Positions 45,021 to 64,000 of a stretch of DNA of 64,000 bases are shown piece after piece (position 1 is the stretch's first letter; every line of letters starts with the position of its first letter). The position numbers and the translations under genes are program-made. Source of the DNA: Alphaproteobacteria bacterium (GTDB lineage Bacteria > Pseudomonadota > Alphaproteobacteria > CADEGL01); assembly GCA_026400755.1 (NCBI GenBank), contig JAPLOM010000011.1, forward strand, positions 135,501 through 199,500, read 5' to 3'. The notes under the pieces are model-generated. The model ran no database searches, was not told the DNA's origin, and saw only the letters and a program-made list of their open reading frames with translations.

Positions 45021-45082
45021 TCGAACTCGTCTCTCAGGGATAGGTCGGGCATTGGAGCAGACTTAACCGCCCCGGCCCGGAC

Positions 45083-45568: not shown

Positions 45569-45744
45569 CTCCTTGAACTCCTTAGCAAGTTTCCATACCC
45601 CCACGGCGACCCGAAAACCGGCGCGATCATAGTGCAAGCCTATCGCGCAGAACAACTGGATGACGCTGTGTCTCGGTTACCTTGCCTTCATGCTCCGGAT
45701 ATGGGATTGCCGGGAACGTTCCCGACCGGCCCCCGCAGTCAGCG

Positions 45745-47635: not shown

Positions 47636-48337
47636 ATGCCTATGACCGACGTGCCGACGCAGGACGATGTGGCGGTCAATCTGGCCGACGTGAAGGCGCG
47701 CATGGCGGCGGTGGCCAAGAGCGCCGGGCGCGTGCCGGCGGACGTGGCGCTGGTGGCCGTCTCGAAGACCCATCCGGCGGAACGTGTGCGCATCGTCCTG
47801 GCCGCGGGGCAGCGTGTGTTCGGCGAGAACCGGGTCCAGGAGGCCATGGCGAAATTCCCGGCGCTCAAGGACCAGCATCCAGACCTTCGCCTCCATTTGA
47901 TCGGGCCGTTGCAGAGCAACAAGGTGAAAGAGGCCATCGCGCTGTTCGACGCCATCGAAAGCGTGGACCGTCCAAAGCTGGCTGCTTCACTTGCCGAACA
48001 GATGGCGAAGAGTGGCCGGCGGCCCGACTGCTACATTCAGGTCAACACCGGCGCCGAGCCGCAGAAGGCTGGCATCCTTCCAGCCGAGGCTGACGCGTTC
48101 ATCCGCGCCTGTCGCGAGACGCACGGGCTGCCACTCAAGGGCCTTATGTGCATTCCGCCGGTGGAAGAGGCGGCCTCGATCCATTTCGCGCTTCTGCGCG
48201 AGATCGCGCGCCGCAACGGCTTGTCCAAGCTCAGCATGGGCATGAGCGGCGATTTCGAGGAAGCCATCCGCTTCGGCGCCACGCTGGTGCGTGTCGGCTC
48301 GGCCATCTTCGGCGCCCGCCCGCGTCCGCAGGAGTGA
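47636..48337 (+). CDS. yggS: YggS-family pyridoxal-phosphate homeostasis protein
   Basis: 233 aa with a TIM-barrel PLP-binding Lys in LVAVSKTHP. Confidence 0.85.
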   Translation: MPMTDVPTQDDVAVNLADVKARMAAVAKSAGRVPADVALVAVSKTHPAERVRIVLAAGQRVFGENRVQEAMAKFPALKDQHPDLRLHLIGPLQSNKVKEAIALFDAIESVDRPKLAASLAEQMAKSGRRPDCYIQVNTGAEPQKAGILPAEADAFIRACRETHGLPLKGLMCIPPVEEAASIHFALLREIARRNGLSKLSMGMSGDFEEAIRFGATLVRVGSAIFGARPRPQE

Positions 48338-48341
48338 CGCT

Positions 48342-49196
48342 ATGACGGTCTACCACGCGTTCGACCAAGCCGCGCTCGATGCGCAGTACAACTGCCGCGC
48401 CATGGTGCCGGAGCATCCGCGCCATATCGAAGGCTGGGCGCACGACAGCGAAGCGGTGCGAACAGCGCACCCGGACGCGCGGCTCGACCTCGCCTATGGG
48501 TCGGGCGAGCGGGAGAGGCTCGATTTCTTTCCGGCTCAGCCAGGTGCGCCCCTGCATCTTTTCATCCATGGCGGCTATTGGCGCGCGCTCGACAAGGCGA
48601 ACTTCAGCTATCCGGCCGCGGCCTTCGCCTCCGCCGGCGTCGCCTATGCGGCCATCAACTATCCGTTGGCGCCGCGCGCGTCTGTCGATGTGATCGTCGC
48701 GAGCGTCCGCCGTGCTCTTGCGTGGCTGATCGGTCATGCCGGCGAGTTGGGCGTCGATCCGGCGGGCATCAGCCTCTCCGGCCATTCCGCGGGCGGGCAT
48801 CTGACCGCCATGGCGTTGGCCGATCCGGCGCTGCCGCGCGGCGCGGTGAGAGGGGCCGTGCCCATCAGCGGCCTCTACGATCTGGAACCGATCCGCCTCA
48901 GCTACCTCAATGGCGAGCTCGGCCTCGATGCGGCCGCGGCGCGGCGCAATTCGCCGATCCACGCCGCGCCGTCGGTCCGCTGCCCGGTCCTCCTGGCCGT
49001 GGGCGGGCGCGAATCGCCCGAGTTTCACCGTCAACAGGCGTCGTTCGCCGACGCGTGGCGGGGGCAATGCGCGGGCATGGAGACGATGATCTCGGCCGGC
49101 GACGATCACTTCTCCATCGTCGGGCATCTGGGCGATCCGGGCAGCGCCCTTTTTCGTGCCGTCGCCCGTCTCGCGCGGGGCGAAGCGTCCGCATGA
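48342..49196 (+). CDS. alpha/beta hydrolase (arylformamidase / esterase-like)
   Basis: An internal ATG (MTVYHAFDQ...), an HGGYW oxyanion-hole motif and a GHSAGG nucleophile elbow. Confidence 0.75.
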   Translation: MTVYHAFDQAALDAQYNCRAMVPEHPRHIEGWAHDSEAVRTAHPDARLDLAYGSGERERLDFFPAQPGAPLHLFIHGGYWRALDKANFSYPAAAFASAGVAYAAINYPLAPRASVDVIVASVRRALAWLIGHAGELGVDPAGISLSGHSAGGHLTAMALADPALPRGAVRGAVPISGLYDLEPIRLSYLNGELGLDAAAARRNSPIHAAPSVRCPVLLAVGGRESPEFHRQQASFADAWRGQCAGMETMISAGDDHFSIVGHLGDPGSALFRAVARLARGEASA

Positions 49197-49836
49197 CGGC
49201 GATCCTCCTAGTCGATGACGACGGCCCGTTCCGCCACACGCTCGCCGAGCAACTGCGCGACGAACAAGGCTTCGAGACGCAGGAAGCGGAGAATGCATCG
49301 GCGGCTCTGGCGGCGATCGACGGCGGGCATTTCGATCTCATCCTGCTCGACGTCGGCCTGCCGGACATGGACGGGCGGGATCTTTGCCGCGCCGTGCGCG
49401 CCAAGGGAATCGCCACGCCGGTCATCATGCTGACCGCGGCCGACGAGGATCTGGACGCGATCCGCGGCCTCGATTCGGGCGCCAACGACTATGTCGCCAA
49501 GCCGGTGCGGATGGGGCTTCTGTTGGCCCGCATCCGCGCGCAGCTTCGCGTCCATGCCGAAAGCGAGCGCGCCGAATACGTCATCGGGCCTTACCTGTTC
49601 CGTCCGGCGTCCAAGCATCTCCTGCACCAGGAGGCGAAGAAGAAGGTGCGCCTGACCGACAAGGAGGTCGGCATCCTGCGCCACCTCCAGCGCGCGGGCG
49701 GAAAATCTGTGGCGCGGGAAACGCTTCTGGCCAGCTGGAAACGCACATCTACCGCCTGCGGCAGAAGATCGAATCCGATCCCGGCAAGAGCGCGATCCTG
49801 GTGACCGACGAGGGCGGTTACCGCTTGGTGCCGTAG
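49196..49836 (+). pseudogene. OmpR-family response regulator, disrupted in the winged-helix domain
   Basis: The REC domain (MTAILLVDDD...DLILLDVGLPDMDG...) is intact in one frame up to ...VARETLLASW. The recognition helix and wing (LETHIYRLRQKIESDPGKSAILVTDEGGYRLVP) continue in another frame from about 49735. The loop normally between them (VWG....RT) is missing. Confidence 0.6.
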
Positions 49837-51044
49837 CCGGCGGGCACGCCGAGCGCGCGCAACTGGAACGCCAGTGGCACGGAGAACAGGAGTGCCGCCG
49901 CCGTCATGGCGGCGCAGACCGGCGCCGCGACGTCCCAGCTTCCCACTAGGTCGAGCGCCGTCGCCAGCACCAATGGCCCGCCCAGCACGCCTAGGTTGCG
50001 TCCCGTCATCAAGATGCCGAACGCATGGGGACGCAGAGCCGGCTGATGCGCGATCCGCGTCGGCATGGCGAACAGACATGTGGGCGTGACGCCGGCGCCG
50101 CTGCCCCACAGGACCAGCAGAAGGCCGCCCAGAACCGGGCTGGTCACATACGGCAGCACGAGCCACACGGCGACCTGCAACGCGAGCGTGACGATCAGCA
50201 GCGTCATGATCGAAATGCCCGCCCGCATGATGAAGCCGGTCATGAACACGAAGATCAGCAGCGTGACCACGGGCACGAGATAGCCGAGCACGGCGTCGTC
50301 TGGCGTGAGGCCGTGGACCTCGACCAGATATTCGGGCAGCCAGGTCATGAAGGCGAAATACTGCATGCCCCAGGCCGTGAAGGTGAGGGAAGCCAGGATC
50401 ATGGCGATGAGCTGGCCCCGGCTCAGCCGTTGCGGACCCTCCGACGCCGCCGTGCGTGCGATGGGCCGCTCGCCGAGCCTGCGGTTGCGCGAGAGGCTGG
50501 AGGTCCAGATCAGAAGCCCGGCAGTGAAGGCGATGCCGCCCCACCACAAGGGTTGCCACAACCCGGCCTGGAGCGAGACATGGGCCATGAGGCCAGCGAT
50601 GATTTGGCCGTTGGGAATCCACGCGGCCGCCAGGGCGACGGCCAGCGGCAAGTGCCGTTCGCTGGCGCTGGCCGTGGCGTGAATCGGCCCAACGAGCGCC
50701 AGGATCGCGAAGGCGGCACCCTCCAAGCCCCGGCCCGCCAGCATGATGCCGCCGCTTTGCGGTGCGGCCAGCCCCAGTGCGTTGCCCGCCAGCATCAACG
50801 CGAAGCCAAACAGAAGCACGGGCGCCATGCCGCGCCGCGCCAGCGCGCGTCCAGCCCAGATCGAAAAGAAGAAGCCGATCACCGCGTAGATCGACATGAA
50901 GCCGCCCGCCACGACGCGGTCGTAGTGGTATTGGTCAAGCATCAGGGGTAGAACGGGCGGCAGCTTGAACTGCTGATAGGCGGCCAAGGTGCCAAGCAGC
51001 GTCCCGAAGGCCACCCCCGTCCAGTCGGTTTTACGAAGGGTCAT
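49818..51044 (-). CDS. MFS transporter
   Basis: 408 aa with about 12 predicted TM helices. It converges on the response regulator with a 19-bp overlap. Confidence 0.8.
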   Translation of the reverse strand: MTLRKTDWTGVAFGTLLGTLAAYQQFKLPPVLPLMLDQYHYDRVVAGGFMSIYAVIGFFFSIWAGRALARRGMAPVLLFGFALMLAGNALGLAAPQSGGIMLAGRGLEGAAFAILALVGPIHATASASERHLPLAVALAAAWIPNGQIIAGLMAHVSLQAGLWQPLWWGGIAFTAGLLIWTSSLSRNRRLGERPIARTAASEGPQRLSRGQLIAMILASLTFTAWGMQYFAFMTWLPEYLVEVHGLTPDDAVLGYLVPVVTLLIFVFMTGFIMRAGISIMTLLIVTLALQVAVWLVLPYVTSPVLGGLLLVLWGSGAGVTPTCLFAMPTRIAHQPALRPHAFGILMTGRNLGVLGGPLVLATALDLVGSWDVAAPVCAAMTAAALLFSVPLAFQLRALGVPAGYGTKR

Positions 51045-51174: not shown

Positions 51175-52035
51175 GTGTTGGGCGCCCAGGAGGGCGATGT
51201 GACCACGGCAGCGGATTTCAGCGTGAAGTTTTGGGGTGTGCGGGGAACTGTCTCCACGCCGGTGGCCAGCCATCTGCGCTATGGCGGCAATACGACGTGC
51301 CTCGAGGTCCGCTGCGGCGAGCGGCTTCTCATCCTCGACGGCGGCACCGGCATCCGTTCGCTCGGCAACGAGTTGGCCGCCAAGGGCGGCGTGGTCGATG
51401 CAGATATCTTCTTCACCCACACGCATGTCGACCATATCGCGGGCCTGCCGTTCTTCCGGCCCATGTACGATCCGAAAAGCCAGTTGCGGCTGTGGGCTGG
51501 TCATCTGGCGCCGGAATTGAGCCTCAACGACATTCTGTGCCGCATGATGTCGGCGCCGCTATTCCCGGTTCCGTTCGAGATCTTGGCCGCGGCGAACACC
51601 ACGATCGATTTTCGCGCGGGCGAAAGCTTCGAACCTTCACCCGGCGTTCGCCTGCGCACCGCGCCGCTCAACCACCCGAATCGGGCCACCGGCTACCGCA
51701 TCGAATTCGGCGGCAAGTCGATCTGCTTCGTCACCGACACGGAACACGTTCCGGGAAAACCGGATCGCACCATCCTCGACCTCATCGCCGGAACCGACAT
51801 CTTCATCTACGACTGCACGTATACGGATGAGGAATATAAAGGCCGTGTCGGCTGGGGGCACTCGACCTGGCAGGAGGGCATCCGGTTGGCCGATATGGCG
51901 CATGCCAAGACGCTGGTCATTTTCCACCACGACCCCGATCACGACGATGCTTTCATGGACCGCGTGGCGTCGGATGCCGACAAGGCGAGGCCCGGCACGC
52001 TCGTGGCGCGCGAAGGCCTGGTCTTGCACCCCTGA
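51175..52035 (+). CDS. MBL-fold metallo-hydrolase
   Basis: HTHVDH metal-binding motif; 286 aa. Confidence 0.75.
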   Translation: MLGAQEGDVTTAADFSVKFWGVRGTVSTPVASHLRYGGNTTCLEVRCGERLLILDGGTGIRSLGNELAAKGGVVDADIFFTHTHVDHIAGLPFFRPMYDPKSQLRLWAGHLAPELSLNDILCRMMSAPLFPVPFEILAAANTTIDFRAGESFEPSPGVRLRTAPLNHPNRATGYRIEFGGKSICFVTDTEHVPGKPDRTILDLIAGTDIFIYDCTYTDEEYKGRVGWGHSTWQEGIRLADMAHAKTLVIFHHDPDHDDAFMDRVASDADKARPGTLVAREGLVLHP

Positions 52036-52040
52036 CACGC

Positions 52041-52889
52041 ATGGCGGGGGGGCATTGGCGCGGCCCGGTGCGGCGGGCGGCTCTCGGCTTGGCGACGGCG
52101 CTGGGGCTTCGCCCGCGCGGATTCTTTGTACCCTATCGCCACGCGGACGCCGTGGCCCCATCGTCCTATCCGGCCATCGCAAAACTATTCGCGGCCTGGG
52201 AGGCGGATTTCGCGGCCATTCTCGACCGGATCGACGGCTTCGAACGGGAATTGCAGGCAATCTCCGCCGATGCGCCCGCACCCGCGCCGCGCTGGAACCA
52301 GGATTGGTTTCCCCGGCTCGATGCAGCGGCGGCCTACGCGATCGTGCGCACGCGGCGGCCGCGCCTGATCGTCGAGGTCGGCAGCGGCCACTCCACCCGC
52401 TTTCTGCTGCGCGCCGCCGAGGACGGGGGTCTCGACACGCGCATCGTCGCGATCGATCCGTCACCCCGTGCACCGTTCGCGTCCGCGCGTATCGAGCACG
52501 TCGCGAGTCCGCTGGAGCGCGCGGATCCTGGAATCTTCGAGCGGCTGGACGCGGGCGACATTCTCTTCATCGATTCCAGCCATGTTCTGATGCCCGGCAC
52601 CGACGTGGATATCCTGCTGAACCACGTGCTGCCTGGCTTGCCGTCCGGCGTCGCCGTGCATATCCACGACATTTTCCTGCCCGATCCCTATCCGGAAAGC
52701 TGGCGCTGGCGCGGCTATAACGAGCAGACGGCGCTGGCCGCGTTCATGCCTGGTGGCGGCTATGTTCCGATCTTTTCAAGCCGGTATGCCACGACGCGCA
52801 TGGACGCGCGTCTCTCGCGCGGCGCGGCCGCGCGGCTGCCCTTGCCGCAAGGCGCCTACGAAACGAGTCTCTGGCTCGAAAAGCGCTGA
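52041..52889 (+). CDS. class I SAM-dependent methyltransferase (Methyltransf_24 / TylF-like)
   Basis: SAM site VEVGSGHST. It lies 5 bp after the MBL gene and converges on the yej operon. Confidence 0.65.
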   Translation: MAGGHWRGPVRRAALGLATALGLRPRGFFVPYRHADAVAPSSYPAIAKLFAAWEADFAAILDRIDGFERELQAISADAPAPAPRWNQDWFPRLDAAAAYAIVRTRRPRLIVEVGSGHSTRFLLRAAEDGGLDTRIVAIDPSPRAPFASARIEHVASPLERADPGIFERLDAGDILFIDSSHVLMPGTDVDILLNHVLPGLPSGVAVHIHDIFLPDPYPESWRWRGYNEQTALAAFMPGGGYVPIFSSRYATTRMDARLSRGAAARLPLPQGAYETSLWLEKR

Positions 52890-52894
52890 CGCGT

Positions 52895-54064
52895 CTATTT
52901 GTAAGGATCGGCCGCGTCGCGCAGCCCGTCGCCCAGGAAGTTGAAGGCCAGGACCACGACGATGACGGGAACCACCGGCAGCATCAGCCAGGGGTAGAGC
53001 GCGACCACGTTGATGTTCTGCGCTTCGTTCAGGAGAACGCCCCAGCTTGTGATGGGTGGCCGCAAGCCAAGACCCAGGAACGACAGGGCCGTTTCGCCCA
53101 GGATCATGCTCGGGATGGAAAGCGTGGCCGAGGCGATCAAGTGGCTCATGAAGCTGGGCATCAGATGCCGTCCGATGATGCGCTTCGGCGATGCGCCCAT
53201 CAGTTGGGCGGCGGTGCAGAAATCTTCTTCGCGCAAGGCCAATAGCTTCGAGCGGACTGCGCGGGCCAAGCCGGTCCAATCGAGCAGGCCGAGGATCATC
53301 GTGATGCCGAAATAGATGACCAGCGGGCTCCACGTCACGGGTAATGCCGCCGATAAGGCCATCCATAGAGGCAGATGCGGGAACGAGCGGAACACCTCGA
53401 TGATGCGCTGGGTGATGTTGTCGATCCAGCCGCCGTAATAGCCGGCCAGGCCGCCGATGACGATGCCGAGCGTAAAGCTGACCGTGATGCCGATCAGGCC
53501 GATCGTCAGCGAGATGCGCGCGCCATAGAGGATGCGCGACAGCATGTCTCGGCCCAACCGGTCCGTGCCCAGAACGAAGAGTTGTCCGCCCTTGGGGGGG
53601 CAGACCAAGTGAAACCGGCCTGGAATCATGCCCCAGAATTCGTAGGCGTCGCCCATGCAGAAGAAGCGTAGCGGCAGGACCTTCGAGCGGTCGTCGGCGT
53701 ACTCCCATTTGAGGACGTCCATGTTCAAATTCGTCTTGAGGCCATACACAAAGGGGCCGACGAACGAGCCGTCATGGAACAGGTGCACGGCCTGGGGCGG
53801 CACGAACAGGTAGTCGGTGTGGCGCGTGTGCTGGTTGTAGGGCGCCAGGACTTCGCTCACCAGAATGGAGGCGTAGAAGATCAGCAGGATGATGCCGGAA
53901 ATGACGGCGATGCGGTGGCGTTTGAACTTCCACCACATCAACTTCCACTGGGACGCCAGGTAATAGCGTTCCTGCTCGGGTGTCAGGATGTCGACCCCAT
54001 AGGGGTCGAACGCGCCCTTGGCGACGTAGTGACGGGCCTCGTCGGGCATCGGGCGGTCCGTCAT
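52895..54064 (-). CDS. yejE: ABC transporter permease (YejE-like, oligopeptide/microcin-C type)
   Basis: An internal ATG (MTDRPMPDEARHYV...) and a BPD-transporter EAA loop in ...AAQLMGASPKRIIGRHLMP.... It overlaps the yejB stop. Confidence 0.8.
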   Translation of the reverse strand: MTDRPMPDEARHYVAKGAFDPYGVDILTPEQERYYLASQWKLMWWKFKRHRIAVISGIILLIFYASILVSEVLAPYNQHTRHTDYLFVPPQAVHLFHDGSFVGPFVYGLKTNLNMDVLKWEYADDRSKVLPLRFFCMGDAYEFWGMIPGRFHLVCPPKGGQLFVLGTDRLGRDMLSRILYGARISLTIGLIGITVSFTLGIVIGGLAGYYGGWIDNITQRIIEVFRSFPHLPLWMALSAALPVTWSPLVIYFGITMILGLLDWTGLARAVRSKLLALREEDFCTAAQLMGASPKRIIGRHLMPSFMSHLIASATLSIPSMILGETALSFLGLGLRPPITSWGVLLNEAQNINVVALYPWLMLPVVPVIVVVLAFNFLGDGLRDAADPYK

Positions 54065-55059
54065 TTCACCGCGCTCCCCTCGAGCCGGATGCGGGGGTCG
54101 AGCACGGCAAGAAGAAGGTCGGAAACCAAAACGCCGAGCACGGTCAACAGCGCCATGAACATCAGGAACGAGCCGGCCAGGTACATGTCCTGGCTGCGCA
54201 GCGCATCGAGCAGCATGGGCCCCGTGGTCGGCAGTGACAGAACGACCGACACGATGGCTGCGCCCGAGATGATTTCGGGCAGCAGACTTCCGATATCCGC
54301 GATGAAGGGATTGAGTGACATCCGCAGCGGGTATTTGACCAGAAGCTTGAAGGGCGGCAGGCCCTTGGCGCGGCCGGTGACCACGTATTGCTTCTGCAAT
54401 TCGTCCAGAAGGTTTGCCCGCAGGCGGCGGATCATGCCCGCGGTGCCGGACGTGCCGATCACGATCACTGGGATCCAAAGATGGGCCAGGATCGACATCA
54501 TCTTTTCCATCGTCCAGGGCTGATCGATGAAGCGTTCGTCCATCAATCCGCCGATCGAGGTGCCGAACCAGACATTGGCCAGATAGAGAAGGACGAGGGC
54601 CAATAGGAAGTTCGGTGTCGCCAGGCCGAGGAATCCGATGAAGGTCAGCGAATGGTCCGCCGCGCTGTACTGGTGCGTCGCGGAATAGACGCCGATCGGG
54701 AAGGCCACGATCCAGGTGAAGATGATGGTCGCGAAGGAGACCAGGGCGGTCAGCCACAGCCGGTCGCCGACCACGGCGTTGACGGGCAGGTTGAACTCGA
54801 AGGAATAGCCCAAATCGCCCTGCAGCAGGCCGAAGACCCACTTCGCGTACTGCACCATAAATGGCTGGTCCAGCCCGTACTGCTCGCGCAGGAACGCCAC
54901 CTTGTCGAAATCGACCCCTTCGCCGCGCGCCTGCAGCTCCGCCACATAGCTTTCCAGATAGTCGCCGGGCGGAAGCTGGATGATGACGAAGACGATGAAG
55001 CTGATCGCCAGCAGCGTCGGGATCATGACCAGGAAGCGGTGGACGATATAGCGCAGCAT
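54061..55059 (-). CDS. yejB: ABC transporter permease (YejB-like)
   Basis: MLRYIVHRFLVMIPTLLAISFIVFVIIQL... ; 332 aa. Confidence 0.85.
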   Translation of the reverse strand: MLRYIVHRFLVMIPTLLAISFIVFVIIQLPPGDYLESYVAELQARGEGVDFDKVAFLREQYGLDQPFMVQYAKWVFGLLQGDLGYSFEFNLPVNAVVGDRLWLTALVSFATIIFTWIVAFPIGVYSATHQYSAADHSLTFIGFLGLATPNFLLALVLLYLANVWFGTSIGGLMDERFIDQPWTMEKMMSILAHLWIPVIVIGTSGTAGMIRRLRANLLDELQKQYVVTGRAKGLPPFKLLVKYPLRMSLNPFIADIGSLLPEIISGAAIVSVVLSLPTTGPMLLDALRSQDMYLAGSFLMFMALLTVLGVLVSDLLLAVLDPRIRLEGSAVK

Positions 55060-55066
55060 CGGGAAC

Positions 55067-57001
55067 CTATTTCATGGCCTGCGTGCGAATCGGTTTCGAT
55101 TCGCCGAGCCAGAACGTGTCGGGCTTGTAGATGCCGAAATGGGCGCCGGGCTCCCACGCGAAGACACCCTTCACGGGCACGTTACGCAGCCGGTTGGTTG
55201 CGACGACCGGCTGAAGCGCGCCCGCGACCACGCCAATGGTGAAAACCTCGTTCGCATGGATTTGGAGCATTTGGGTCCAGGCATCCAGCTTCTCGGCCTC
55301 GTTCGAGGCTGTCCGCCATTGCTGGTTGAGCTCCAGAAGGCGCTTCGCGGATTCCATGTCCGGCGCCTCGCCAGCCTTGCTGCGCGTCTCGAAATACTGG
55401 CCCCACTTCGGCCATTGGAGCTGTTGCTGGTTGGTGGGAGCCAGTTCCTCCGGGCTCAAATCCTGGGTCGGCAGGCCGTTATCGAGGCCGGTCCAGACCG
55501 ACATCATCGTGTCGCCGGAGAAGACGCGGTTACGGAACACTTCGCGCTGCGACGTCTTGATCAGAAGCCGGATGCCGGCCTTCTGCCAGGTGTCGCGGAC
55601 CAGCTCCAGGATGTCGGCCTGCTCCGAACTTTCGCCGGCGGTTTCCACCACCAGCTCGAGCGGCCGGCCATCGGGCATCAGGCGCACGCCGCGCGCGTTG
55701 CGCTTGGTCATTCCCAATTCGTCGAGCAGCGCGTTGGCCCGGTCCAGGTCGAAACCGCTCCAGGCCTTCTGGTATTCCGGCTTGTAGAGCGGACTTTCCG
55801 GCAGGACCGTATTCGCCGATTCGATGGCCAGGCCGTAGTAAATGACTTGGTTCACTTCATGCCGGTCGATCGCGAGCGAAAGCGCATGTCGAAAGCGCGC
55901 GTCGCGGAACAGGGCGCGCCAGCCGGGATCGTTGACGTTGAGGTTGGGATACAGCGTGAACTGCGAACCGACCGCCGTGCGCCACAGCAGCACGCTCTGG
56001 TCGACACGCTTCTCGCTTTCCTTAAGGAACGTGTAGTTGTCGAAGCGGATATAGCGCGCTTGCAGGTCCGATTCGCCCGCGCCCGTCTTCGCCGGAATGA
56101 TCTTTCCATCCGCGACATTCATGATCACTTCGTCGATATAGGGCAGTTGCCGTCCCTGCGGATCGACGCGGTGATAGTACGGATTGCGCGTGAACACGAA
56201 TCGCTGCGACGGCGGCGTGGTCTTGAGGATCCAGGGGTCCAGCGTGGGCAGCTCCGGATTGTCGTTGCGGTATTGGTTGTCCTGCCGGTTGTGCAGCGCG
56301 GCCCAGTTCTGAAGCCCTTGTTCCTTGGCACGGCGCGCCAGGAGCGAGGGGTCGGAATAGACGGCGTGGAACTGCCTCAGATATTTGTCAGGACGATAGA
56401 TATAGAGCGGCGTCGTGCCGGCCAGCGCGGGCAGGAAGAACGGATTGGGCTTCGGCCAGGAATAGCGGACGGTGGTTTCGTTGATGACCTGGAACTTCGG
56501 CAACTCGCCGTCCGCCAGTAATTGGCTCGGAGGTCCAAACGGCGACAGCTCCTTGTTGAGTGCCACGTCTTCCCAGTAATAGCGAAAGTCCTCGGCTGTG
56601 AACGGCTCGCCGTCCGACCATTTATGGCCCTTGCGCAGGTGAAGCGTGAAGATGCGCCCGTCCTGCACCTCGTAGGATTCCAGAAGGTCCGGCTCCAGCG
56701 TGTATTCGGGCGTCCAGACGACCAGGCGTGTATAGCCGTAGACGACCATCTGGCGCGTGTCCTTCGACGACGCCATCAGCATGCGCAAGGCACCGCCATA
56801 GGTGCCGGGCTGTGCGCCGCCCTCGAACGTCACCACGCGCGGGGTTTCCGGCAGCCGTTTGGCAACCGGCGGCAGCTTGCCTTCCTTGACCAGCTTGGAG
56901 AGCGACGGAACTTCCTCGGGGGGCGGCAGCTTGGTTTGCGCGCCGGCCGGGATGGCGGTCAGCAGGGCGAGCGCGAAGCCGAGGAACGCCAGACGCTTCA
57001 C
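55067..57001 (-). CDS. yejA: ABC transporter substrate-binding protein, family 5 (YejA-like)
   Basis: A probable GTG start ([21 protein letters not shown], signal peptide) overlaps the yejF stop. Roughly 644 aa, the large SBP5 type. Confidence 0.8.
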   Translation of the reverse strand: MKRLAFLGFALALLTAIPAGAQTKLPPPEEVPSLSKLVKEGKLPPVAKRLPETPRVVTFEGGAQPGTYGGALRMLMASSKDTRQMVVYGYTRLVVWTPEYTLEPDLLESYEVQDGRIFTLHLRKGHKWSDGEPFTAEDFRYYWEDVALNKELSPFGPPSQLLADGELPKFQVINETTVRYSWPKPNPFFLPALAGTTPLYIYRPDKYLRQFHAVYSDPSLLARRAKEQGLQNWAALHNRQDNQYRNDNPELPTLDPWILKTTPPSQRFVFTRNPYYHRVDPQGRQLPYIDEVIMNVADGKIIPAKTGAGESDLQARYIRFDNYTFLKESEKRVDQSVLLWRTAVGSQFTLYPNLNVNDPGWRALFRDARFRHALSLAIDRHEVNQVIYYGLAIESANTVLPESPLYKPEYQKAWSGFDLDRANALLDELGMTKRNARGVRLMPDGRPLELVVETAGESSEQADILELVRDTWQKAGIRLLIKTSQREVFRNRVFSGDTMMSVWTGLDNGLPTQDLSPEELAPTNQQQLQWPKWGQYFETRSKAGEAPDMESAKRLLELNQQWRTASNEAEKLDAWTQMLQIHANEVFTIGVVAGALQPVVATNRLRNVPVKGVFAWEPGAHFGIYKPDTFWLGESKPIRTQAMK

Positions 57002-58881
57002 GAAGCCAGCTCCCGCACGTCGGCGCGCGCATCCGCGCGGACGCAGTGCCCGCCACCCAAATCGATCAGCGCGGGCTGCGCCTGATCGTCGATCGTGAAC
57101 GGCCGCGGCCAAGCCGAGGGGTCGGACGCGCGGCCTTCCATCAGGAGCGAAAGGTCGAGGCGCCGGTTGAGGTCGGGATAGGGCACGGCGGCGACCAAGG
57201 CCTTCGTGTACGGATGCACCGGATTGCTGAACAGCAGCTCGCGCGGCGCTAATTCGACCAGGCGGCCCTTGCACATCACGGCGATGCGCGCCGCCACGTA
57301 GTCCACCACGGCCAGATTGTGGGAGATGAACAGATAGGTCAGGCCCAACTCGGACTGAAGGTCCTTCAAGAGATTGAGGATCTGCGCCTGGATCGAGACG
57401 TCGAGCGCCGAGACCGGTTCATCGCAGATAACAATGTCGGGACGCAGCGCCAGCGCGCGTGCGATGCCGATGCGCTGGCGCTGTCCGCCGGAAAAGCTGT
57501 GCGGATAGCGGTTCAGATGCCGGACGTCGAGGCCGACCAGGCGCAGCAGTTCCTTCACCATCTCGGCGCGATAGGCCGAATCGCCGACTTTATGGATGAC
57601 CAGCGGCTCGCTGATGATGTCGAACACCGTCATGCGCGGATTAAGCGAGCTGAACGGGTCCTGGAAAATGAGCTGCAACTTCTTGCGAAAATCGATCAGT
57701 TCGCGGCCTTCGAGCGCCAGCACGTCGACCGGCTTCTTGCCGTCGTGGTACGTGACCGTGCCCGTGTCGGGCTTCAGCGCGCGCATGATGATCTTGGACA
57801 GGGTCGTCTTGCCGCAGCCACTTTCGCCGACCAGGCCCAGGCATTCGCCGCGCGCGATGTCGAAGCTGACATCGTCCACCGCCAGGATGCGGCTGATGGC
57901 TTGACCGCCGGTCAGGCCGCCGCGGATCTGAAAGCTTTTGCAGATATGGCCGACCTTGAGGATGGGCTCGGGGCTGGTCGCGGGCGGCGCCTCCTTCTTC
58001 TTCAGAAGGTGGCCCATCTCGCCCTTGATCTCGCGCAACGGCACCAGGCGTTCGTCGCGCTTCATGTCGAAATGCGGAACGGCGCGGAACAGGCCTTTCA
58101 GATACGGGTGACGCGGGTCGCGGAACAGCTCCTTGGCCGAGCCGGATTCCATCACCTCGCCGCGGAACATCACGACCACGTCCTCGGCCACGTTGGCCAC
58201 CACGCCCAGGTCGTGGGTGATGATCAGGACAGCCATGCCCAGCTCGCGCTGCAGGTCGCCCAAGAGCTTCAGGATTTGCGCCTGGATGGTGACGTCGAGC
58301 GCCGTCGTAGGCTCGTCGGCGATCAGCAGTCCGGGACGGCAGATCAACGCCATGGCGATCATGGCGCGCTGGCGCAGCCCGCCGGACAACTCGAAGGCAT
58401 AGTTGCGATAGGCGCGCTCGGGATCGGGAAAGCCGACCAGTCGCAGCATTTCGATGGTCAGGTCCTTGCCCGTGGCCTTGTCCACGTCGCGGTGAAGATG
58501 GAGCGCCTCGCTGACCTGATCGCCCACGGTGTGGAGCGGCGACAGCGAGGTCATCGGCTCCTGGAAGATGATCGAGATACGTCCGCCGCGAATCCGCCGC
58601 ATGGGCTGACCGTCGGGGTCGAGCCCGGCGATGTCGACGACGGCGCCGTTGGCGGCGGGGTCCGAGAACAGAATGCGCCCGCCGGCAACCCGTCCCACCT
58701 TGGGCAGGATACCCATGATGGCTTGGGCGATGACGGACTTGCCCGAACCCGATTCGCCCACCAGGGCCAAGGTCGAGCCCTGCTTGATGTTGAACGACAC
58801 ACCCTTCACGGCGTTGATCACGCCGCCATGGACGTGGAAATCGATCTTCAAGTCTTCGACGCGCAGAAGATCCTCGGTCAC
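56998..58881 (-). CDS. yejF: ABC transporter ATPase with two fused ABC domains (YejF-like)
   Basis: Two Walker A motifs ([16 protein letters not shown]) and two ABC signatures ([16 protein letters not shown]). A probable GTG start at about 58881 overlaps the upstream gene's stop. Confidence 0.85.
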
Positions 58882-59402
58882 GCGGCGTCTCCGGCGGGGA
58901 TGTGGATGCCCAGACCGGACAGATTGGCTTTCGTGCTGTCGGAGAGCGCCACGTTGTTGGCGCGCGCGGCCTCGGCCGCGCGAACGACGATGTCCTTGAA
59001 CCCGTCCAGGGTCGAATCGAGCCGTAGGCTTCGGTGGCCGTCCCCCAGGCTCAATTCCATCCACCCCTCCGACCGGTCGCGCTTGAGCGAGAAAAACCGC
59101 AAGCCGACCTTGCGAATATCGCGCCACGCGATCGTCCGTGGCGCGAGCCCGGGCAAGCTCCCCTTGCGTCCGCCCAGAGGGTCGGAGCTTAGCCCGTGTT
59201 CCGTGACATGAACCAGCATCATGCCGCGCAGAATCGTGCGCAGGCCGAAGGCCAGGAACAAAAGAGCCAGCACGCCCAGAATGACCAAGGCCACAGTGCT
59301 GTCGCCCAACAGCAGCATCGGACCCGCGGTCAGGAGCAGGCCCATGGCCGCACGGCGCAGATCGGCGCGCACGCTGTGTTTGTCGTAACGATGGACGTTC
59401 AT
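58878..59402 (-). CDS. hypothetical membrane protein (two N-terminal TM helices plus a soluble domain), coupled into the yej operon
   Basis: An internal ATG (MNVHRYDKHSVRADLRRAAMGLLLTAGPMLLLG...VALVILGVLALLFLAFGL). About 174 aa. It has a 4-bp overlap with the deacetylase gene upstream and with yejF downstream. Confidence 0.45.
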   Translation of the reverse strand: MNVHRYDKHSVRADLRRAAMGLLLTAGPMLLLGDSTVALVILGVLALLFLAFGLRTILRGMMLVHVTEHGLSSDPLGGRKGSLPGLAPRTIAWRDIRKVGLRFFSLKRDRSEGWMELSLGDGHRSLRLDSTLDGFKDIVVRAAEAARANNVALSDSTKANLSGLGIHIPAGDAA

Positions 59403-60202
59403 GCGCTCTTTTCCGTCGGTCGCGCGCGCCGGGGCGTCACCGGGCGGGGGCGGAACAAATCCGCCGGCCGGCGCCAGCGGGCCGCGCTGTGGGCTTCGAT
59501 CAGTGCGACAAGCCGCTCGAGAAACGCCCAGCAAGCACCGTCATGGACCAGATGGTGGCTCAAAATGCCCGTCGGCTCGTCCGCGTCGATCTGTCTGGCT
59601 CGGCGACGCGCCAAGAAATCCACCGCGCGGCCCAGCACGGCATTTTCGCCCAGAAAGCCGCGGCTGCCGTGCCAATCGACGATGTCCACGTGGGTGTTCA
59701 CCTGGGCCAGGTTGGGAATGGGCTCCGGCCGGCTGCGCGCGCCATAGGTAGACAGGCCACGATAGCCGATTTCCGGCAGCAGAGGAACAAGGCCGGGCGC
59801 GAGGCGATTCCAAGGCGGCACCAGGACGGGCAGGGCGCGCGGGCCGAAGACGGCTTCCAAACGTGCCCAGCCGGTGGCCAGATCGCCCAGCGTGTGGACC
59901 AAGGGCCGCTGGGGTCCCAGTTCGATCTTGGCGTCGGATGGATTGGCGTAGTTCTGGTGCGAATAGCCGTGCTGAAGAACGGCTATATTCCCATACTTAT
60001 CAATAGTTTGAACGAGAGCATCGAGCAGCTTGGCGGGCACCACGGCCAAGCCGATAGGGGCGCCCCGGGCGGTCGCCGCCAGCCGGTCGAGGGCAGGCGA
60101 GGGCTGATGGGCGTCGTCGTCGCGCCACCAGAAATCGGCCGTCTTTCCAGCCTGACCCCAAAGATCGAGTTCGCGCGTCAGCGCGTCCCAAGCGTTGGTC
60201 AT
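59399..60202 (-). CDS. polysaccharide deacetylase (CE4 / NodB-homology) family protein
   Basis: FWWRDDDA resembles the CE4 TFDDG metal-binding motif. 267 aa. Confidence 0.6.
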   Translation of the reverse strand: MTNAWDALTRELDLWGQAGKTADFWWRDDDAHQPSPALDRLAATARGAPIGLAVVPAKLLDALVQTIDKYGNIAVLQHGYSHQNYANPSDAKIELGPQRPLVHTLGDLATGWARLEAVFGPRALPVLVPPWNRLAPGLVPLLPEIGYRGLSTYGARSRPEPIPNLAQVNTHVDIVDWHGSRGFLGENAVLGRAVDFLARRRARQIDADEPTGILSHHLVHDGACWAFLERLVALIEAHSAARWRRPADLFRPRPVTPRRARPTEKSA

Positions 60203-61353
60203 GCCACCGGCGCTTTCCCGGCGAGCCAGCCGGCCAGCAGCCGGGCGCTTTCCCGCGCACCATCCCGCTTCAGCGCAATCTCCACGACCGGCGCGGCGAG
60301 GGCGCGGTCGATCGCCGCGGCGAGGGTGGATGGTGTCAGCGCATTCTCCGCGACCAGCTCGGCGCGTCCGCGTGCGCGCAACAGATCCGCGCGCAAGGGC
60401 TGTTCGGTCTGTCCGTTTCCGGCGAAGGGGGCCAGCACGGCGGGGATGCGGGCGGCGAGAATCTCCATCACCGTATTATATCCGGCCTGCGAGACCGAGA
60501 GGCGGCCATTGGCCAAGAGGCGGCGAAAATCCGTGCGTGCGCGCTCGACGATGACGCCTTGCGGTGCCGTTGCCTGCAGACGCGCGAAATCACCCCCCGG
60601 CAATTCGCCTCCAGCGAGAAGACGCCAAACTTTATCCTTCGCCGTCGTCAAAGGACGCGCGGCGATGGCGGTGGCCAGCAACGCCGCACCCACCGCGCCT
60701 CCGCCCGAGGAGACGATCACCTCGTCCCAGCCGGGATCGCCCACGGCGCCGCGGGCCTCGGCGGGCTCGGCGATATAGCCGGTGTAGGCGATCTTGGCCG
60801 CCAGCGTGGCGTCGAGTGGAAAGCTCGCGTCGAGGGCGACGAAAGCCGGATCGCCATGGACCAGCACATGATCGAAGCGCCGCGCGATGGCGGCCATCTG
60901 ATCCGAAACCATGCCGGACTTCGCCTGCAGGATGTCGCGCACGGAGGAGACGATGAAAGGCTGTGGACGCGCGGCCAAAGCGGTATCGAGAAGCGGCGTC
61001 AGCTCGAATGCCATCTGCCGCCGCCCGAATGGATAGGTTTCCGTCACCAGCGCGTCGGGTTTGAATTTTGCGAACGCCGTCAGCAGTGCATCGCGCCGCG
61101 CCACGCGCCATGCATCGTCCACGTCCGCGCCACGATCGTCGATCAGGCCGGAAAAATTTTCGTCGCGCGCGGCGGCGGATGGAAGCTGCAGGAGCGATGC
61201 ATGGCCGAAATCCAGATCGGCGATGGGCCGCCCGCCGGAGACCAGGAGCGTGTCCATGCCCGATGTTTCACAGGCGCGTGCGAGCGCCGCGGCGCGGCGC
61301 AGATGGCCGCTGCCGAGCAGGTGCTGGACATAGATCAGGACGCGCTGGGTCAC
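60199..61353 (-). CDS. GT-B fold glycosyltransferase (GT1/GT28 MurG-like)
   Basis: An N-terminal glycine-rich loop (LLGSGHLRR) and a C-terminal nucleotide-sugar binding half; 384 aa. Confidence 0.6.
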   Translation of the reverse strand: MTQRVLIYVQHLLGSGHLRRAAALARACETSGMDTLLVSGGRPIADLDFGHASLLQLPSAAARDENFSGLIDDRGADVDDAWRVARRDALLTAFAKFKPDALVTETYPFGRRQMAFELTPLLDTALAARPQPFIVSSVRDILQAKSGMVSDQMAAIARRFDHVLVHGDPAFVALDASFPLDATLAAKIAYTGYIAEPAEARGAVGDPGWDEVIVSSGGGAVGAALLATAIAARPLTTAKDKVWRLLAGGELPGGDFARLQATAPQGVIVERARTDFRRLLANGRLSVSQAGYNTVMEILAARIPAVLAPFAGNGQTEQPLRADLLRARGRAELVAENALTPSTLAAAIDRALAAPVVEIALKRDGARESARLLAGWLAGKAPVA

Positions 61354-61937
61354 GGCGCGAGCGGGATGTTGAGGCGCGCGGGGCGGATGGCCCCGTCAAC
61401 ATCGAGCGCGAATTCATGCGCGCATGACCAGTCGAGATCGGCCGGCGGCTTGCCGGTCAGGTCCCAGCCGGTCGCCAGCGCCAGCGCGGCGCGGATGACG
61501 CCCTTGTGGCTGACGGCGACCGTATCCTGGCCGGTGCGTGCGCGCTCGGCAAAGAACGAAGCGATGCGCGCGCAGACATCGCGCGGGCTCTCTCCGCCAA
61601 CGGCGCGGAAATCGAGGCCTTTGGCCTCGTTCTCCACCATGGCGTCGCCATAGCGCGCGCGCAGATTCTCCAGCGTCTCGCCCTCCCATTCGCCCCAATG
61701 CATCTCGGCGATGCGCGGCTCCAGCGCGGGCGCGCGTCCTGCCAGGATCTCGGCCGTCTCCCGCGCACGCGCAAGCGGGCTTGCGATCCAATGGTGGGCA
61801 AGGAATTCCGCCGGCGCGCGCCAACTCTTCACCCGCGCGCGCCCGGCTTCGGACAAGGGAATGTCGGTATGCCCCTGGACGCGGCCGATCTCGTTCCACT
61901 CGGTCGGTCCGTGGCGGATGAGGACGAGCGCGGTCAT
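61350..61937 (-). CDS. histidine phosphatase (phosphoglycerate-mutase-like) family protein
   Basis: MTALVLIRHGPTEWN... (RHG motif); 195 aa. 4-bp overlaps on both sides. Confidence 0.75.
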   Translation of the reverse strand: MTALVLIRHGPTEWNEIGRVQGHTDIPLSEAGRARVKSWRAPAEFLAHHWIASPLARARETAEILAGRAPALEPRIAEMHWGEWEGETLENLRARYGDAMVENEAKGLDFRAVGGESPRDVCARIASFFAERARTGQDTVAVSHKGVIRAALALATGWDLTGKPPADLDWSCAHEFALDVDGAIRPARLNIPLAP

Positions 61938-63085
61938 GCCGCGCCTCGCGTGACACGCGCGAGGATGGCGCCGAGTGCGCGCGCGGCGCCGTCGATGCTG
62001 TGATCTGCCATCACGCGCCGCATCGCATTCGCGCCCATATGGCGGCGAAGATTTTCGTCGTCGAGCATCCGCGCGACCGCGCGCGCGAATTCCGCCGTGT
62101 CGCCGGGCGCGGTCAACACGCCGGTCTCGCCATCATGGACGATGCCGGGCACGCCGCCCTCCGCGCCGGCGACCACGGGGCAATCGCTGGCCTGCGCCTC
62201 CAGAAATGCCATGCCAAAAGCCTCGCGCACGGCAGGCCAAACATAAAGGTCAGCGGCGGCGTAGAAACCCGGCAGCGCCGCCTCGTCGAGACGCCCGGCG
62301 AAACGCACGCGATCGTGGCCCAAGGTGGACAGAACAGCCTCGACCTCTGGACGCGCGGGCCCATCGCCCGCGACCACGAGCTGCCAAGGCCGATCGTTCA
62401 CGCGCCGCAGCGCGTCTGCCAGCAACTTATAAGAGCGCAGCTTGTCGCCCGGGCGCATCATGGCGACAGTGGCCAGCCAGGGCCGCGCGGGGTCCAATCC
62501 ATGATCGCGCGCAAGCGCCGCGCGATGGCCCGCACGGGCGGCCTGCGCAGCGGCGAACGGCGCTGGATCGAGGAATGGTGCCAGGCGATGCAACCGTGAA
62601 TCGTCGGTGACCCACGGGCGCAAGCCGCCTTCGTCGGCTTCGTTGAGCGAGATGATCGCATCGGCGCGGGCAACGGCCTTGATCGCGGCCTCGTGCCCCA
62701 TACGCCATGATCCGTTGGCCTGCTTGTTGGCGACGGAGGCTTCGGCGATCACGTAGGGGATGTTCAGCGCATCGGCCACAGCTGGTCCCAACCAATCAGG
62801 CGCCTTGTGATAGAGGTGATAGGTGAACCAAGCCTGAGGCCGCGCCTCGGGCGGGGCCGCGCGGTAGCGGCGCACCAGCCGCGTGGCCATGCGCGCGCCG
62901 ATCTCGCGAATGCGCGCTTGGCGCGCTGCGTCGCCTGCGCCGTTCCAAGTGCGTAAACGGGACGCCAATTCCACGCTGTGCCCGCCGCGCGTTAGCGCCG
63001 CCATCAGCAGCCGCGCCACCAGCCGGTCGCCCGAGGGCACTGGATGATCGGGCGGCTTCAGCGGCGCGTGGAAGGCGATGCGCAT
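61934..63085 (-). CDS. GT4 family glycosyltransferase
   Basis: An internal ATG (MRIAFHAPLKPPDHPVPSGDR...) and the C-terminal GT4 E-x7-E region (EAFGMAFLEAQASDCPVV). Confidence 0.75.
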   Translation of the reverse strand: MRIAFHAPLKPPDHPVPSGDRLVARLLMAALTRGGHSVELASRLRTWNGAGDAARQARIREIGARMATRLVRRYRAAPPEARPQAWFTYHLYHKAPDWLGPAVADALNIPYVIAEASVANKQANGSWRMGHEAAIKAVARADAIISLNEADEGGLRPWVTDDSRLHRLAPFLDPAPFAAAQAARAGHRAALARDHGLDPARPWLATVAMMRPGDKLRSYKLLADALRRVNDRPWQLVVAGDGPARPEVEAVLSTLGHDRVRFAGRLDEAALPGFYAAADLYVWPAVREAFGMAFLEAQASDCPVVAGAEGGVPGIVHDGETGVLTAPGDTAEFARAVARMLDDENLRRHMGANAMRRVMADHSIDGAARALGAILARVTRGAA

Positions 63086-64000
63086 GACATACCGAATTTC
63101 GCGGCCAGCACGTCGATGCCGACGGCGTGGGAGAATTTCTCGATGACGCGCGCCTGTCCCGCCGCGCCCAGGCGCGCGCGCGCGTCCGGGTCGGCCAACA
63201 GGGTTTCGATCGCGCGGGCGAGAGCGGACGGATCGTGCGGCGGCACCAGCACGCCGGTCTCGCGATCCAGGATCAGCTCCGGAATCCCCGACACGTCGGT
63301 CGAGATGCAGGCCACGCCTTGGCTTTGCGCTTCCATCAAGACGTTGGGCAGTCCGTCGCGGTCGCCGTCGCCGGCCACGCGCGAAGGCAGCACGAACAGA
63401 TCGGCTTCGCGGTAGAGCCGCAGCACCTCGTCCTGCGGCAGGGCGCCGCGCCATTCGATGTGCGCTGCGATGCCGCTCTGCGTCGCCTGGCGCTTGAGCG
63501 CGGGCAACAGCGGGCCGCCACCGACATGGATAAAGCGCCAGCCGAGCGCAGGCGGCAGGGCGGCCAGCGCCGCCAGAAGATCGTCGAAGCCTTTCTTCTC
63601 CACCGCGCGCCCAACCGACAGGATCATGGGTGTCGCCGTCGCGCGCGGCGTCGTGGCGGATGCAAAGCGCGCGAGGTCGAGGCCGTGATAGACCAGCTCG
63701 ACCTTCTCGTGCGACGGCGCCAGCGCGGCCAGATGGGCGCGGCCCGCGTCGGTGCAGGTCACCAGCCACGCCATGGCGGCCAGCTTCTCGCGCTTCTCCC
63801 ACTCCGGCGTGGTCCAAATGTCCTTGGCGTGGGCCGAGCAGGTCCAGGGCAGGCCCGTCAGGATCGCGGCATAGCGCGCGACCGAAGCGGGCGTGTGCAG
63901 GAAATGGGCATGCAGCGCGCCGATCTCCTGGGGCAGCTCGTGGGCCAGCACCAACGCCTGGCCGAAGCGGCGGATGCGGTTGGGCGTCGGATCGCGGCGC
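63058..64000 (-). CDS. GT4 family glycosyltransferase, partial (5' end beyond the window)
   Basis: The ORF continues past position 64000. The C-terminal GT4 motif is ...GLPNVLMEAQSQGVACISTDVSGIPE. Confidence 0.7.
   Translation of the reverse strand, partial: RRDPTPNRIRRFGQALVLAHELPQEIGALHAHFLHTPASVARYAAILTGLPWTCSAHAKDIWTTPEWEKREKLAAMAWLVTCTDAGRAHLAALAPSHEKVELVYHGLDLARFASATTPRATATPMILSVGRAVEKKGFDDLLAALAALPPALGWRFIHVGGGPLLPALKRQATQSGIAAHIEWRGALPQDEVLRLYREADLFVLPSRVAGDGDRDGLPNVLMEAQSQGVACISTDVSGIPELILDRETGVLVPPHDPSALARAIETLLADPDARARLGAAGQARVIEKFSHAVGIDVLAAKFGMSCASPSTRR

Follow-up and report, generated by a model that had tools for sequence, protein, structure and literature searches.

The ten-gene operon and its conservation

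The stretch of DNA analysed here, called the window below, comprises 64,000 nucleotides (nt) of contig JAPLOM010000011.1 (GCA_026400755.1, positions 135,501–199,500 of the forward strand), and our subject is an operon at its end in which genes for glycosyltransferases, a phosphatase and a deacetylase-like enzyme are joined to those of an ATP-binding cassette (ABC) importer. A gene model built from the map of open reading frames (ORFs), start-codon analysis and junction sequences gives ten consecutive minus-strand genes in the order GT4a-GT4b-HP-GTB-DA-TM-F-A-B-E. Two retaining GT4 glycosyltransferases come first, GT4a (63058–64000, continuing beyond the window, whose end truncates it on the 5′ side) and GT4b (61934–63085; 383 residues). 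They are followed by HP (61350–61937; 195 residues), an enzyme of the histidine-phosphatase superfamily, by GTB (60199–61353; 384 residues), a GT28-like transferase of the MurG type (inverting, GT-B), and by DA (59399–60202; 267 residues), a cytoplasmic deacetylase-like enzyme with the NodB/CE4 fold. TM (58878–59402) encodes a 174-residue membrane protein with two transmembrane helices and a PH-like beta domain. The transporter genes complete the run: F (56998–58881; 627 residues), a fused double-ABC ATPase of a PepT (Opp/Dpp) importer; A (55067–57001; 644 residues), a periplasmic family-5 solute-binding protein with a signal-peptide-like N-terminus; and the PepT permeases B (54061–55059; 332 residues) and E (52895–54064; 389 residues, with an OppC_N extension), of which E closes the operon.

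At seven of the nine junctions, start and stop codons overlap by 4 nt (ATGA or GTGA), as in the ATGA that joins HP to GT4b; the other two are a 28-nt overlap (GT4a/GT4b) and a 7-nt spacer (A/B). An earlier note on this DNA had described ten coupled minus-strand genes with a 4-bp overlap at almost every junction. ORF map, start codons and junctions agree with the coupling, and the statement on overlaps holds apart from the two junctions just named. Identical proteins are found on four independent metagenome contigs, where the gene callers set the same boundaries, and the stop codon of E lies 5 nt from that of a convergent gene, MT24. A scan for promoter-like and terminator-like sites across the operon gave no excess of either, and intergenic room for them is absent; Rfam and tRNA scans added nothing. 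The ten genes are a single translationally coupled unit, and they belong to an operon of eleven, which starts with GTB2 just past base 64000.

The linkage of the enzyme genes with the importer genes is conserved across Alpha-, Beta- and Gammaproteobacteria, far beyond chance. One genome per species was scanned with a DA alignment, which gave 80 loci, and gene order was followed in these by tblastn with the ten window proteins. Linkage was counted in the 49 loci that have at least 4 kb upstream and 7.5 kb downstream. The ten-gene order, for which the earlier note had advised a search in other genomes, recurs: all ten genes are colinear in 24 of the 49 loci and ten more are colinear apart from A (34 in total), while the permease genes B and E lie within 10 kb of DA in 45. 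An ordinary lipopolysaccharide (LPS) or exopolysaccharide (EPS) locus set apart from F by a terminator or promoter, the case which that note had weighed against its own proposal, is not what was found: no priming phosphoglycosyl transferase, Wzx/Wzy or PCP/OPX genes were seen among the ORFs scanned in the window at 42–64 kb and in the flanks of the related locus L006, and the gaps from DA to TM (61 of 61 loci) and from TM to F (55 of 55), which are extrapolated values, are all shorter than 150 nt.

The hosts include Azospirillum, Thalassospira, Reyranella, Inquilinus, Kiloniellales, Hyphomicrobiales, Marinobacterium, Acidiferrobacterales and metagenome-assembled genomes of Rhodoferax/Burkholderiaceae, and the cluster was found in many metagenome-assembled genomes from sea and soil. 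Rearranged loci that retain the link occur in Gammaproteobacteria (L026, L049, L064, L073 and L076) and in Azospirillum (L011, L017 and L031), as well as on pSymB of Sinorhizobium meliloti, p42e of Rhizobium etli and pRL11 of Rhizobium johnstonii. Both DA and GTB are borne by 259 plasmid or chromid records from Rhizobium, Sinorhizobium, Azospirillum and others. A linkage that outlasts changes of gene order is strong evidence of shared function. One full copy of the cluster (L055, DATLJB010000179.1) lies on a contig binned as Terriglobia (Acidobacteriota), all other hosts being proteobacterial; it could reflect mis-binning or horizontal transfer.

Genes beyond the window were read from L006, a relative 90% identical. 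Past the point at which the window ends, L006 carries GTB2, a second GT28-like gene placed 15 nt upstream of GT4a, and then, about 1.5 kb beyond base 64000, a divergent gene (1808–4543 of L006, minus strand) for a 911-residue MsbA/NdvA-like ABC exporter. The nucleotide-binding domain of this exporter is split by an insertion of about 240 residues (roughly residues 500–745), for which a Pfam search gave no match. A stand-alone cyclic-nucleotide-binding protein of 149 residues is encoded directly after the exporter, and a Methyltransf_17 gene and an endonuclease/exonuclease/phosphatase-family gene are further members. Among the 80 loci, GTB2 recurs in 65, the exporter in 41, the cyclic-nucleotide-binding gene in 41 and Methyltransf_17 in 32. 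The operon forms the centre of a conserved neighbourhood that comprises about 15–17 genes, and two or three methyltransferases accompany it. Gene-by-gene annotation covers the window from 42 to 64 kb and the flanks of L006.

Next to the operon in the window stand two plus-strand genes, MT24 (52041–52889), a Methyltransf_24 methyltransferase (PF13578, 2e-12), and the gene of a metallo-beta-lactamase (MBL)-fold hydrolase of the RNase Z, PhnP or phosphodiesterase-like kind (51175–52035; Lactamase_B_2, 9.6e-22). A homologue of MT24 occupies the same position in 18 loci. The MBL gene is likewise present in 18 loci, and also near the S. meliloti and R. leguminosarum versions; its L006 orthologue gave weak NCBIfam matches to RNase Z, PhnP and a cyclic-nucleotide phosphodiesterase, all under the cut-off. 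The suspicion that this convergent pair belongs to the same locus is supported by its recurrence, and both are probably accessory genes of the cluster. Further along, a gene of the major facilitator superfamily (MFS) lies on the minus strand (49818–51044; MFS_1, 1e-25). Its homologues adjoin the cluster in eight loci, and it is a possible peripheral member of the neighbourhood. On pRL11, too, an MFS gene (pRL110043) adjoins the cluster. The edge of the cluster is marked by ordinary housekeeping genes, namely those of a YggS-like pyridoxal phosphate protein (47636–48337), a BD-FAE/alpha-beta hydrolase (esterase; 48291–49196), a fused CysN/CysC (sulfate adenylyltransferase GTPase subunit and APS kinase; 45664–47625, plus strand) and leucyl-tRNA synthetase (42456–45062, minus strand).

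The enzymes, the membrane protein and the importer

Domains were assigned by Pfam gathering scores and NCBIfam equivalog cut-offs. Both GT4 enzymes match Glycos_transf_1 (GT4a 2e-36, 125.6 bits; GT4b 4.9e-30, 104.7 bits; cut-off 26.4), and GT4b also matches Glyco_trans_1_4. About 97 N-terminal codons of GT4a fall outside the window, the full-length L006 orthologue having 410 residues. The closest solved relatives of GT4a are PimB′, MshA and sucrose-phosphate synthase (SPS), and those of GT4b are the SPS Tll1590, MshA and BshA, which act on small, mostly phosphorylated acceptors. HP matches His_Phos_1 (1.6e-40; 139.3 bits against 21.7) and has the RHG motif in LIRHGPTEWN; it looks like an active histidine phosphatase. 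It stays under the CobC equivalog cut-off (110 against 162.9) and under the other equivalog cut-offs, and its solved relatives are alpha-ribazole-phosphate phosphatase, phosphoserine phosphatase and GpgP (7e-10). HP orthologues are 57–66% identical, and no fusion of GT4b with HP was found among the top 120 HP homologues. GTB reaches 35.2 bits for Glyco_tran_28_C (cut-off 22) and 31.6 for the MurG equivalog (cut-off 250), scores by which it is MurG-like, yet not MurG; a solved sequence relative was not found for it. With GTB2, the transferase set of the cluster amounts to two retaining GT4 and two inverting GT28-like enzymes.

DA and TM have no Pfam or NCBIfam match even at E = 10, Polysacc_deac_1 and the NCBIfam deacetylase models included. 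A sequence-based CE4 label for DA was therefore dropped and the fold was used instead. DA has the (beta/alpha) barrel of NodB, and its structural neighbours include peptidoglycan N-acetylglucosamine (GlcNAc) deacetylases. The motifs that are invariant in an alignment of 28 homologues, RDDD (27–30), H78-x3-H82, PPWNR, N-x-H-x-D-x3-W (169–177) and HH (216–217), fit the five CE4 motifs, an assignment made by inspection rather than by structural superposition. These residues are candidates for the catalytic Asp, the Asp-His-His metal triad and the catalytic His of motifs 1, 2 and 5. The CE4 label is supported by fold and motifs only; of the families named in the earlier note, both GT4 assignments, His_Phos_1, the GT28-like one and SBP_bac_5 were returned by the profile searches. 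DA is without a signal peptide and so acts in the cytoplasm.

The DA family counts 676 representative clusters at E ≤ 1e-30, and five of its members (P0194, P0198, P0233, P0296 and P0309) are natural single-chain fusions of about 645 residues, the N-terminal half of which is an orthologue of GTB; P0194 is 46% identical to GTB and 44% to DA. These fusions support the view that the GT28-like transferase and the deacetylase act one after the other. In another member, P0258, the deacetylase is followed by an unrelated domain of about 230 residues that bears Cys-x2-Cys pairs. The TM family is small (39 hits), and its gene is placed between enzyme and transporter genes in 55–61 loci. The AlphaFold2 model of TM (predicted local distance difference test, pLDDT, 87) has helices at 8–31 and 36–60, then seven strands and a C-terminal helix, and its best Foldseek matches are bacterial PH domains, weak ones (E ≥ 0.17).

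The importer has all components of its family and, by its domain content, is of the generic PepT (Opp/Dpp/Nik) type (Transporter Classification, TC, 3.A.1.5). F has two ABC_tran domains and oligo_HPY (5.5e-17), B has BPD_transp_1 and BPD_transp_1_N, and E has BPD_transp_1 and OppC_N; B is 60–79% identical across loci. The label yejFABE given in the earlier note did not survive. F scores 594 bits for GsiA (cut-off 1077) and 502.9 for YejF (834), both under the cut-off, with GsiA and generic dipeptide models above YejF. For B the top NCBIfam model is Opp4B (240 bits against 450), YejB giving 114.7 against 445, and for E the values are 267 against 350 (Opp4C) and 127.1 against 439 (YejE). Yej orthology was rejected on these cut-offs and on the gene order, which is F-A-B-E here.

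A matches SBP_bac_5 (3.7e-63). Its solved relatives are the Thermotoga ‘OppA’ 5IPW (1.6e-89), the pectin-binding protein SPH1118 of Sphingomonas sp. A1 (1.3e-83) and the alpha-galactoside binder AgpA (4e-30), and it aligns with the first two across about 580 residues; peptide binders are matched at 1e-15 or weaker, and the murein-peptide binder MppA at 2e-7. These relatives argue against peptide cargo, and the idea of a peptide- or opine-class cargo appears unfounded, because A is far nearer to 5IPW and SPH1118 (1e-84 to 1e-90) than to peptide binders. The ligand-contact residues of SPH1118 have been published (PMC9314435), and of these R294, R466, F592 and W594 are conserved in A, the Trp/Phe pair being the sugar-stacking platform, while R57, R438, R496, E216 and D483 are lost. 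Since the stacking residues and two Arg are kept and most carboxylate binders are replaced, the ligand of A is likely a carbohydrate other than an oligogalacturonide.

The rhizobial counterparts

Orthologues in Rhizobium bear names in annotation tables only; no paper describing the function of these red and opt genes was found, and no functional description of the cluster was found in the literature. In strain 3841 of R. johnstonii (leguminosarum) they are annotated as pRL110046 (cyclic-nucleotide-binding), pRL110047 (ABC exporter), pRL110048 (redAh), pRL110049 (redB), pRL110050 (redA), pRL110051–054 (optC, optB, optA and optD) and pRL110055 (cyaA) (PMC11406972 supplement). The window proteins are 41% (GTB/redAh), 56% (GT4a/redB), 69% (E/optC), 67% (B/optB), 49% (A/optA) and 62% (F/optD) identical to their pRL11 orthologues, and for the genes past the window end the L006 copies give 52% (GTB2), 41% (exporter) and 54% (cyclic-nucleotide-binding protein). 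As in the window, the importer on pRL11 is in one operon with transferases; unlike in the window, the order is reversed, with the importer first and an adenylate/guanylate cyclase gene at the head (cyclase-F-A-B-E-GTB2-GT4a-GTB-exporter-cyclic-nucleotide-binding gene). In R. leguminosarum GT4b directly precedes DA, and in strain 248 these two genes stand apart from the others, as a pair at another site of the same replicon; on a related R. ruizarguesonis plasmid the pair lies about 43 kb away. HP and TM were not detected in strain 3841.

Several genes are found with the rhizobial versions. A cyclase gene heads the importer-transferase-exporter operon in L085, L086, L088 and L089, and a second cyclase and an FkbM methyltransferase adjoin the separate GT4b-deacetylase pair. 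In S. meliloti a polysaccharide lyase gene lies directly upstream of the importer genes, an arrangement seen in Sinorhizobium only. Cyclase, polysaccharide lyase, UDP-sugar dehydrogenase, FkbM, DUF3095 and alpha/beta-hydrolase genes were considered as core genes and left out because they are not recurrent among the 80 loci from outside the rhizobia. The pSymB cluster of the Clr regulon (nodP2-smb21248) belongs to another locus. In Rhizobium the MFS gene is separated from the cyclic-nucleotide-binding gene by a gene for a RelE/ParE toxin and a small hypothetical one (pRL110044-045; 17448–18199 in L089 and 16604–17352 in L088).

Toxin-antitoxin loci often score as growth-defective in insertion sequencing (INSeq). 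In a root-attachment study of strain 3841 pRL110043-046 were growth-defective (PMC11406972), and for pRL110046 this score may be an effect of the adjoining toxin-antitoxin locus. INSeq of the same strain across lifestyles found that the exporter pRL110047 is required in nodules and that optA and optD mutants have an advantage in the rhizosphere and on roots (10.1101/2020.05.07.082560). These phenotypes indicate that the system is expressed and matters in vivo.

Possible functions and known systems

We tentatively favour the reading that a small glycoside or oligosaccharide containing glucosamine is made in the cytoplasm, exported and afterwards taken back up, a reading that may well be right and that stops short of what we would call probable. 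Its chemistry is drawn from enzyme families and gene order. All the enzymes lack signal peptides, which places the chemistry in the cytoplasm. A GT4 enzyme would glycosylate a phosphorylated small acceptor, and HP would then remove the phosphate; such a start is suggested because the nearest solved relatives of GT4b are SPS, MshA and BshA and because HP comes directly after it. A GT28-like enzyme would add GlcNAc, which DA would convert to glucosamine (GlcN), and the other transferases together with the methyltransferases would complete a short, partly cationic, methylated glycan. The exporter would release this glycan, with gating by cAMP or cGMP being possible, and the importer would take it, or the fragments into which it breaks down, back up from the periplasm, a logic of making, export and reuptake as for compatible solutes and opine metallophores.

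Four observations weigh against this proposal. HP is missing from the rhizobial and from some gammaproteobacterial versions, so that the phosphorylated-acceptor step would not be universal. Only 4 of the 17 ligand contacts of SPH1118 are conserved in A, and the top solved relative, 5IPW, is without a known ligand. In the root-attachment study of strain 3841, the red and opt genes and that of the exporter scored as neutral (PMC11406972). Finally, 13 otherwise colinear loci lack a binding-protein gene within 10 kb (L009, L010, L019, L020, L021, L046, L048, L054, L056, L059, L062, L063 and L069). Their hosts are Reyranellaceae, Kiloniellales and some Gammaproteobacteria, and in them the ATPase gene runs straight into the permease genes, F, B and E remaining 60–76% identical. 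Recapture that depends on a binding protein fits these loci poorly, unless an orphan binding protein stands in. In one of them, L020, cytochrome c maturation genes come after the last permease gene.

A bolder form of the make-and-recapture proposal is that the product is an undescribed diffusible methylated GlcN glycoside, with cyclic-nucleotide-gated ABC export and recapture by a PepT importer. Such a compound would act as a secreted signal or as a public good, like a Nod factor or a metallophore, common to Rhodospirillales, rhizobia and marine Gammaproteobacteria, and would affect plant-associated fitness. We offer this as a speculation that is rather unlikely to hold.

The same conserved linkage would be expected if the importer served the start of the pathway instead of its end. 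This was the idea of the earlier note, that an external acceptor is taken up and remodelled in the cytoplasm, here with re-export by the MsbA-like exporter. In Rhizobium and Sinorhizobium the importer genes do precede those of the transferases and the exporter in the operon, and the polysaccharide lyase gene before the S. meliloti importer could yield an oligosaccharide cargo; the lyase, however, is restricted to Sinorhizobium, the 13 loci without a binding protein fit precursor uptake poorly, and four transferases and a phosphatase suffice to make a glycoside from scratch. We therefore regard precursor import as a serious though doubtful alternative.

The loci without A raise another possibility, namely that the PepT module does not import at all and, like SapBCDF, needs no binding protein, serving instead to export a cationic GlcN product or as its partner in the membrane, perhaps with the PH-like TM. 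F, B and E are well kept in these loci, TM is translationally coupled directly upstream of F, and NCBIfam lists Sap, of the same transporter family, as a putrescine exporter. Most loci, that of the window included, nevertheless encode a binding protein with a signal-peptide-like N-terminus; the Sap models score far under their cut-offs and below Opp/Dpp/Nik, and a dedicated exporter already accompanies the cluster, all of which makes such a role improbable.

The order of a GT4 enzyme, a phosphatase and a deacetylase matches the logic of MshA/MshA2/MshB, and MshA and BshA are among the best solved relatives of GT4b. The mycothiol and bacillithiol analogy drawn in the earlier note holds only at this level of logic, and a pathway for a low-molecular-weight thiol or another GlcN-aglycone cofactor of that type would account for it. 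It is a very improbable reading all the same: the MshA (81.3 bits against 462.5) and BshA (83.2 against 273.7) cut-offs are not reached, the fold of DA is that of NodB and not LmbE, no cysteine ligase turned up among the neighbouring genes examined in the window and L006, and three further transferases, an exporter and an importer would have no role there. Equally remote, or slightly more so, is the recycling of muropeptides, in which the importer would take up peptidoglycan fragments for reuse by the MurG-like transferases. YejBEF-YepA takes up muropeptides in Agrobacterium, and the two GT28-like transferases and the peptidoglycan GlcNAc deacetylases among the structural neighbours of DA would fit; the transporter, however, is not of the Yej type, A groups with 5IPW and SPH1118 and not with MppA, and no genes for a peptide stem or for anhydro-MurNAc handling were seen in the neighbourhood in the window and L006. 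A chance adjacency of ordinary LPS or EPS transferase genes and an unrelated peptide transporter, to which weak matches of the GT4 enzymes to EpsE, WcaL and PEP-CTERM-type transferases and a neighbouring Rhizobium UDP-GlcNAc 6-dehydrogenase treated as O-antigen-related (pRL110056) might point, is nearly refuted by the linkage across three proteobacterial classes and several rearrangements, by the translational coupling, by equivalog scores that are all far under cut-off, and by the lack of any priming phosphoglycosyl transferase, flippase, polymerase or outer-membrane export gene (Wzx/Wzy, Wzm/Wzt, PCP/OPX) among the annotated ORFs of the window at 42–64 kb and the L006 flanks.

If the make, export and recapture proposal is true, a widespread gene set of unassigned product would encode a complete cycle of this kind for a small glycan, and a function would be given to the Rhizobium red and opt genes, whose mutants, with those of the exporter, show fitness effects in nodules and rhizosphere. 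The cargo range of the ‘oligopeptide’ ABC importers would also be extended, and a tractable case of cyclic-nucleotide control over glycan export would be at hand. Orthologues in S. meliloti, R. leguminosarum and Azospirillum brasilense leave the question open to direct genetic testing.

Several known systems share parts of this design. YejABEF, which imports peptides and microcin C, resembles the importer in belonging to the PepT superfamily, in its fused double-ABC ATPase, in its large family-5 binding protein and in a permease with a long N-terminal extension. Its gene order, however, is yejA-yejB-yejE-yejF, the three Yej models score far under their cut-offs, and the binding protein here is not of the peptide type. 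SPH1118 has in common with A Trp594/Phe592 and two Arg, whereas most of its carboxylate-binding residues are replaced in A; neither SPH1118 nor 5IPW is encoded beside transferase genes, as far as the sources say. In the pairs SPS/SPP, MshA/MshA2 and GpgS/GpgP a GT4 enzyme is followed by a phosphatase, as in the cluster, and GpgP is in the superfamily of HP, yet the equivalog cut-offs are unreached. The cluster adds three transferases, a deacetylase, methyltransferases and two transporters, which suggests a larger product than those of such two-step glycoside-phosphate pathways.

The Nod-factor pathway (NodC/NodB/NodS/NodIJ) combines cytoplasmic assembly of an oligosaccharide with a de-N-acetylase, S-adenosylmethionine-dependent methyltransferases and an ABC exporter. 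The cluster is like it in the cytoplasmic NodB-fold deacetylase, the methyltransferases and the dedicated ABC exporter, and unlike it in having neither a GT2 chitin-oligosaccharide synthase nor a NodA acyltransferase, in having an importer and in being widespread in non-symbionts. In the staphylopine cnt operon, biosynthetic genes, a PepT ABC importer and an exporter stand at one locus, and the small molecule is secreted and recaptured. The likeness is one of architecture only: F reaches 375 bits against the CntF cut-off of 385, whereas A gives 67 against 800 for CntA, and enzymes of the CntK/L/M type are absent from the cluster. Taken with these systems, the cluster is an uncharacterised variant of the biosynthesis-export-uptake type, widespread and present in tractable model bacteria.

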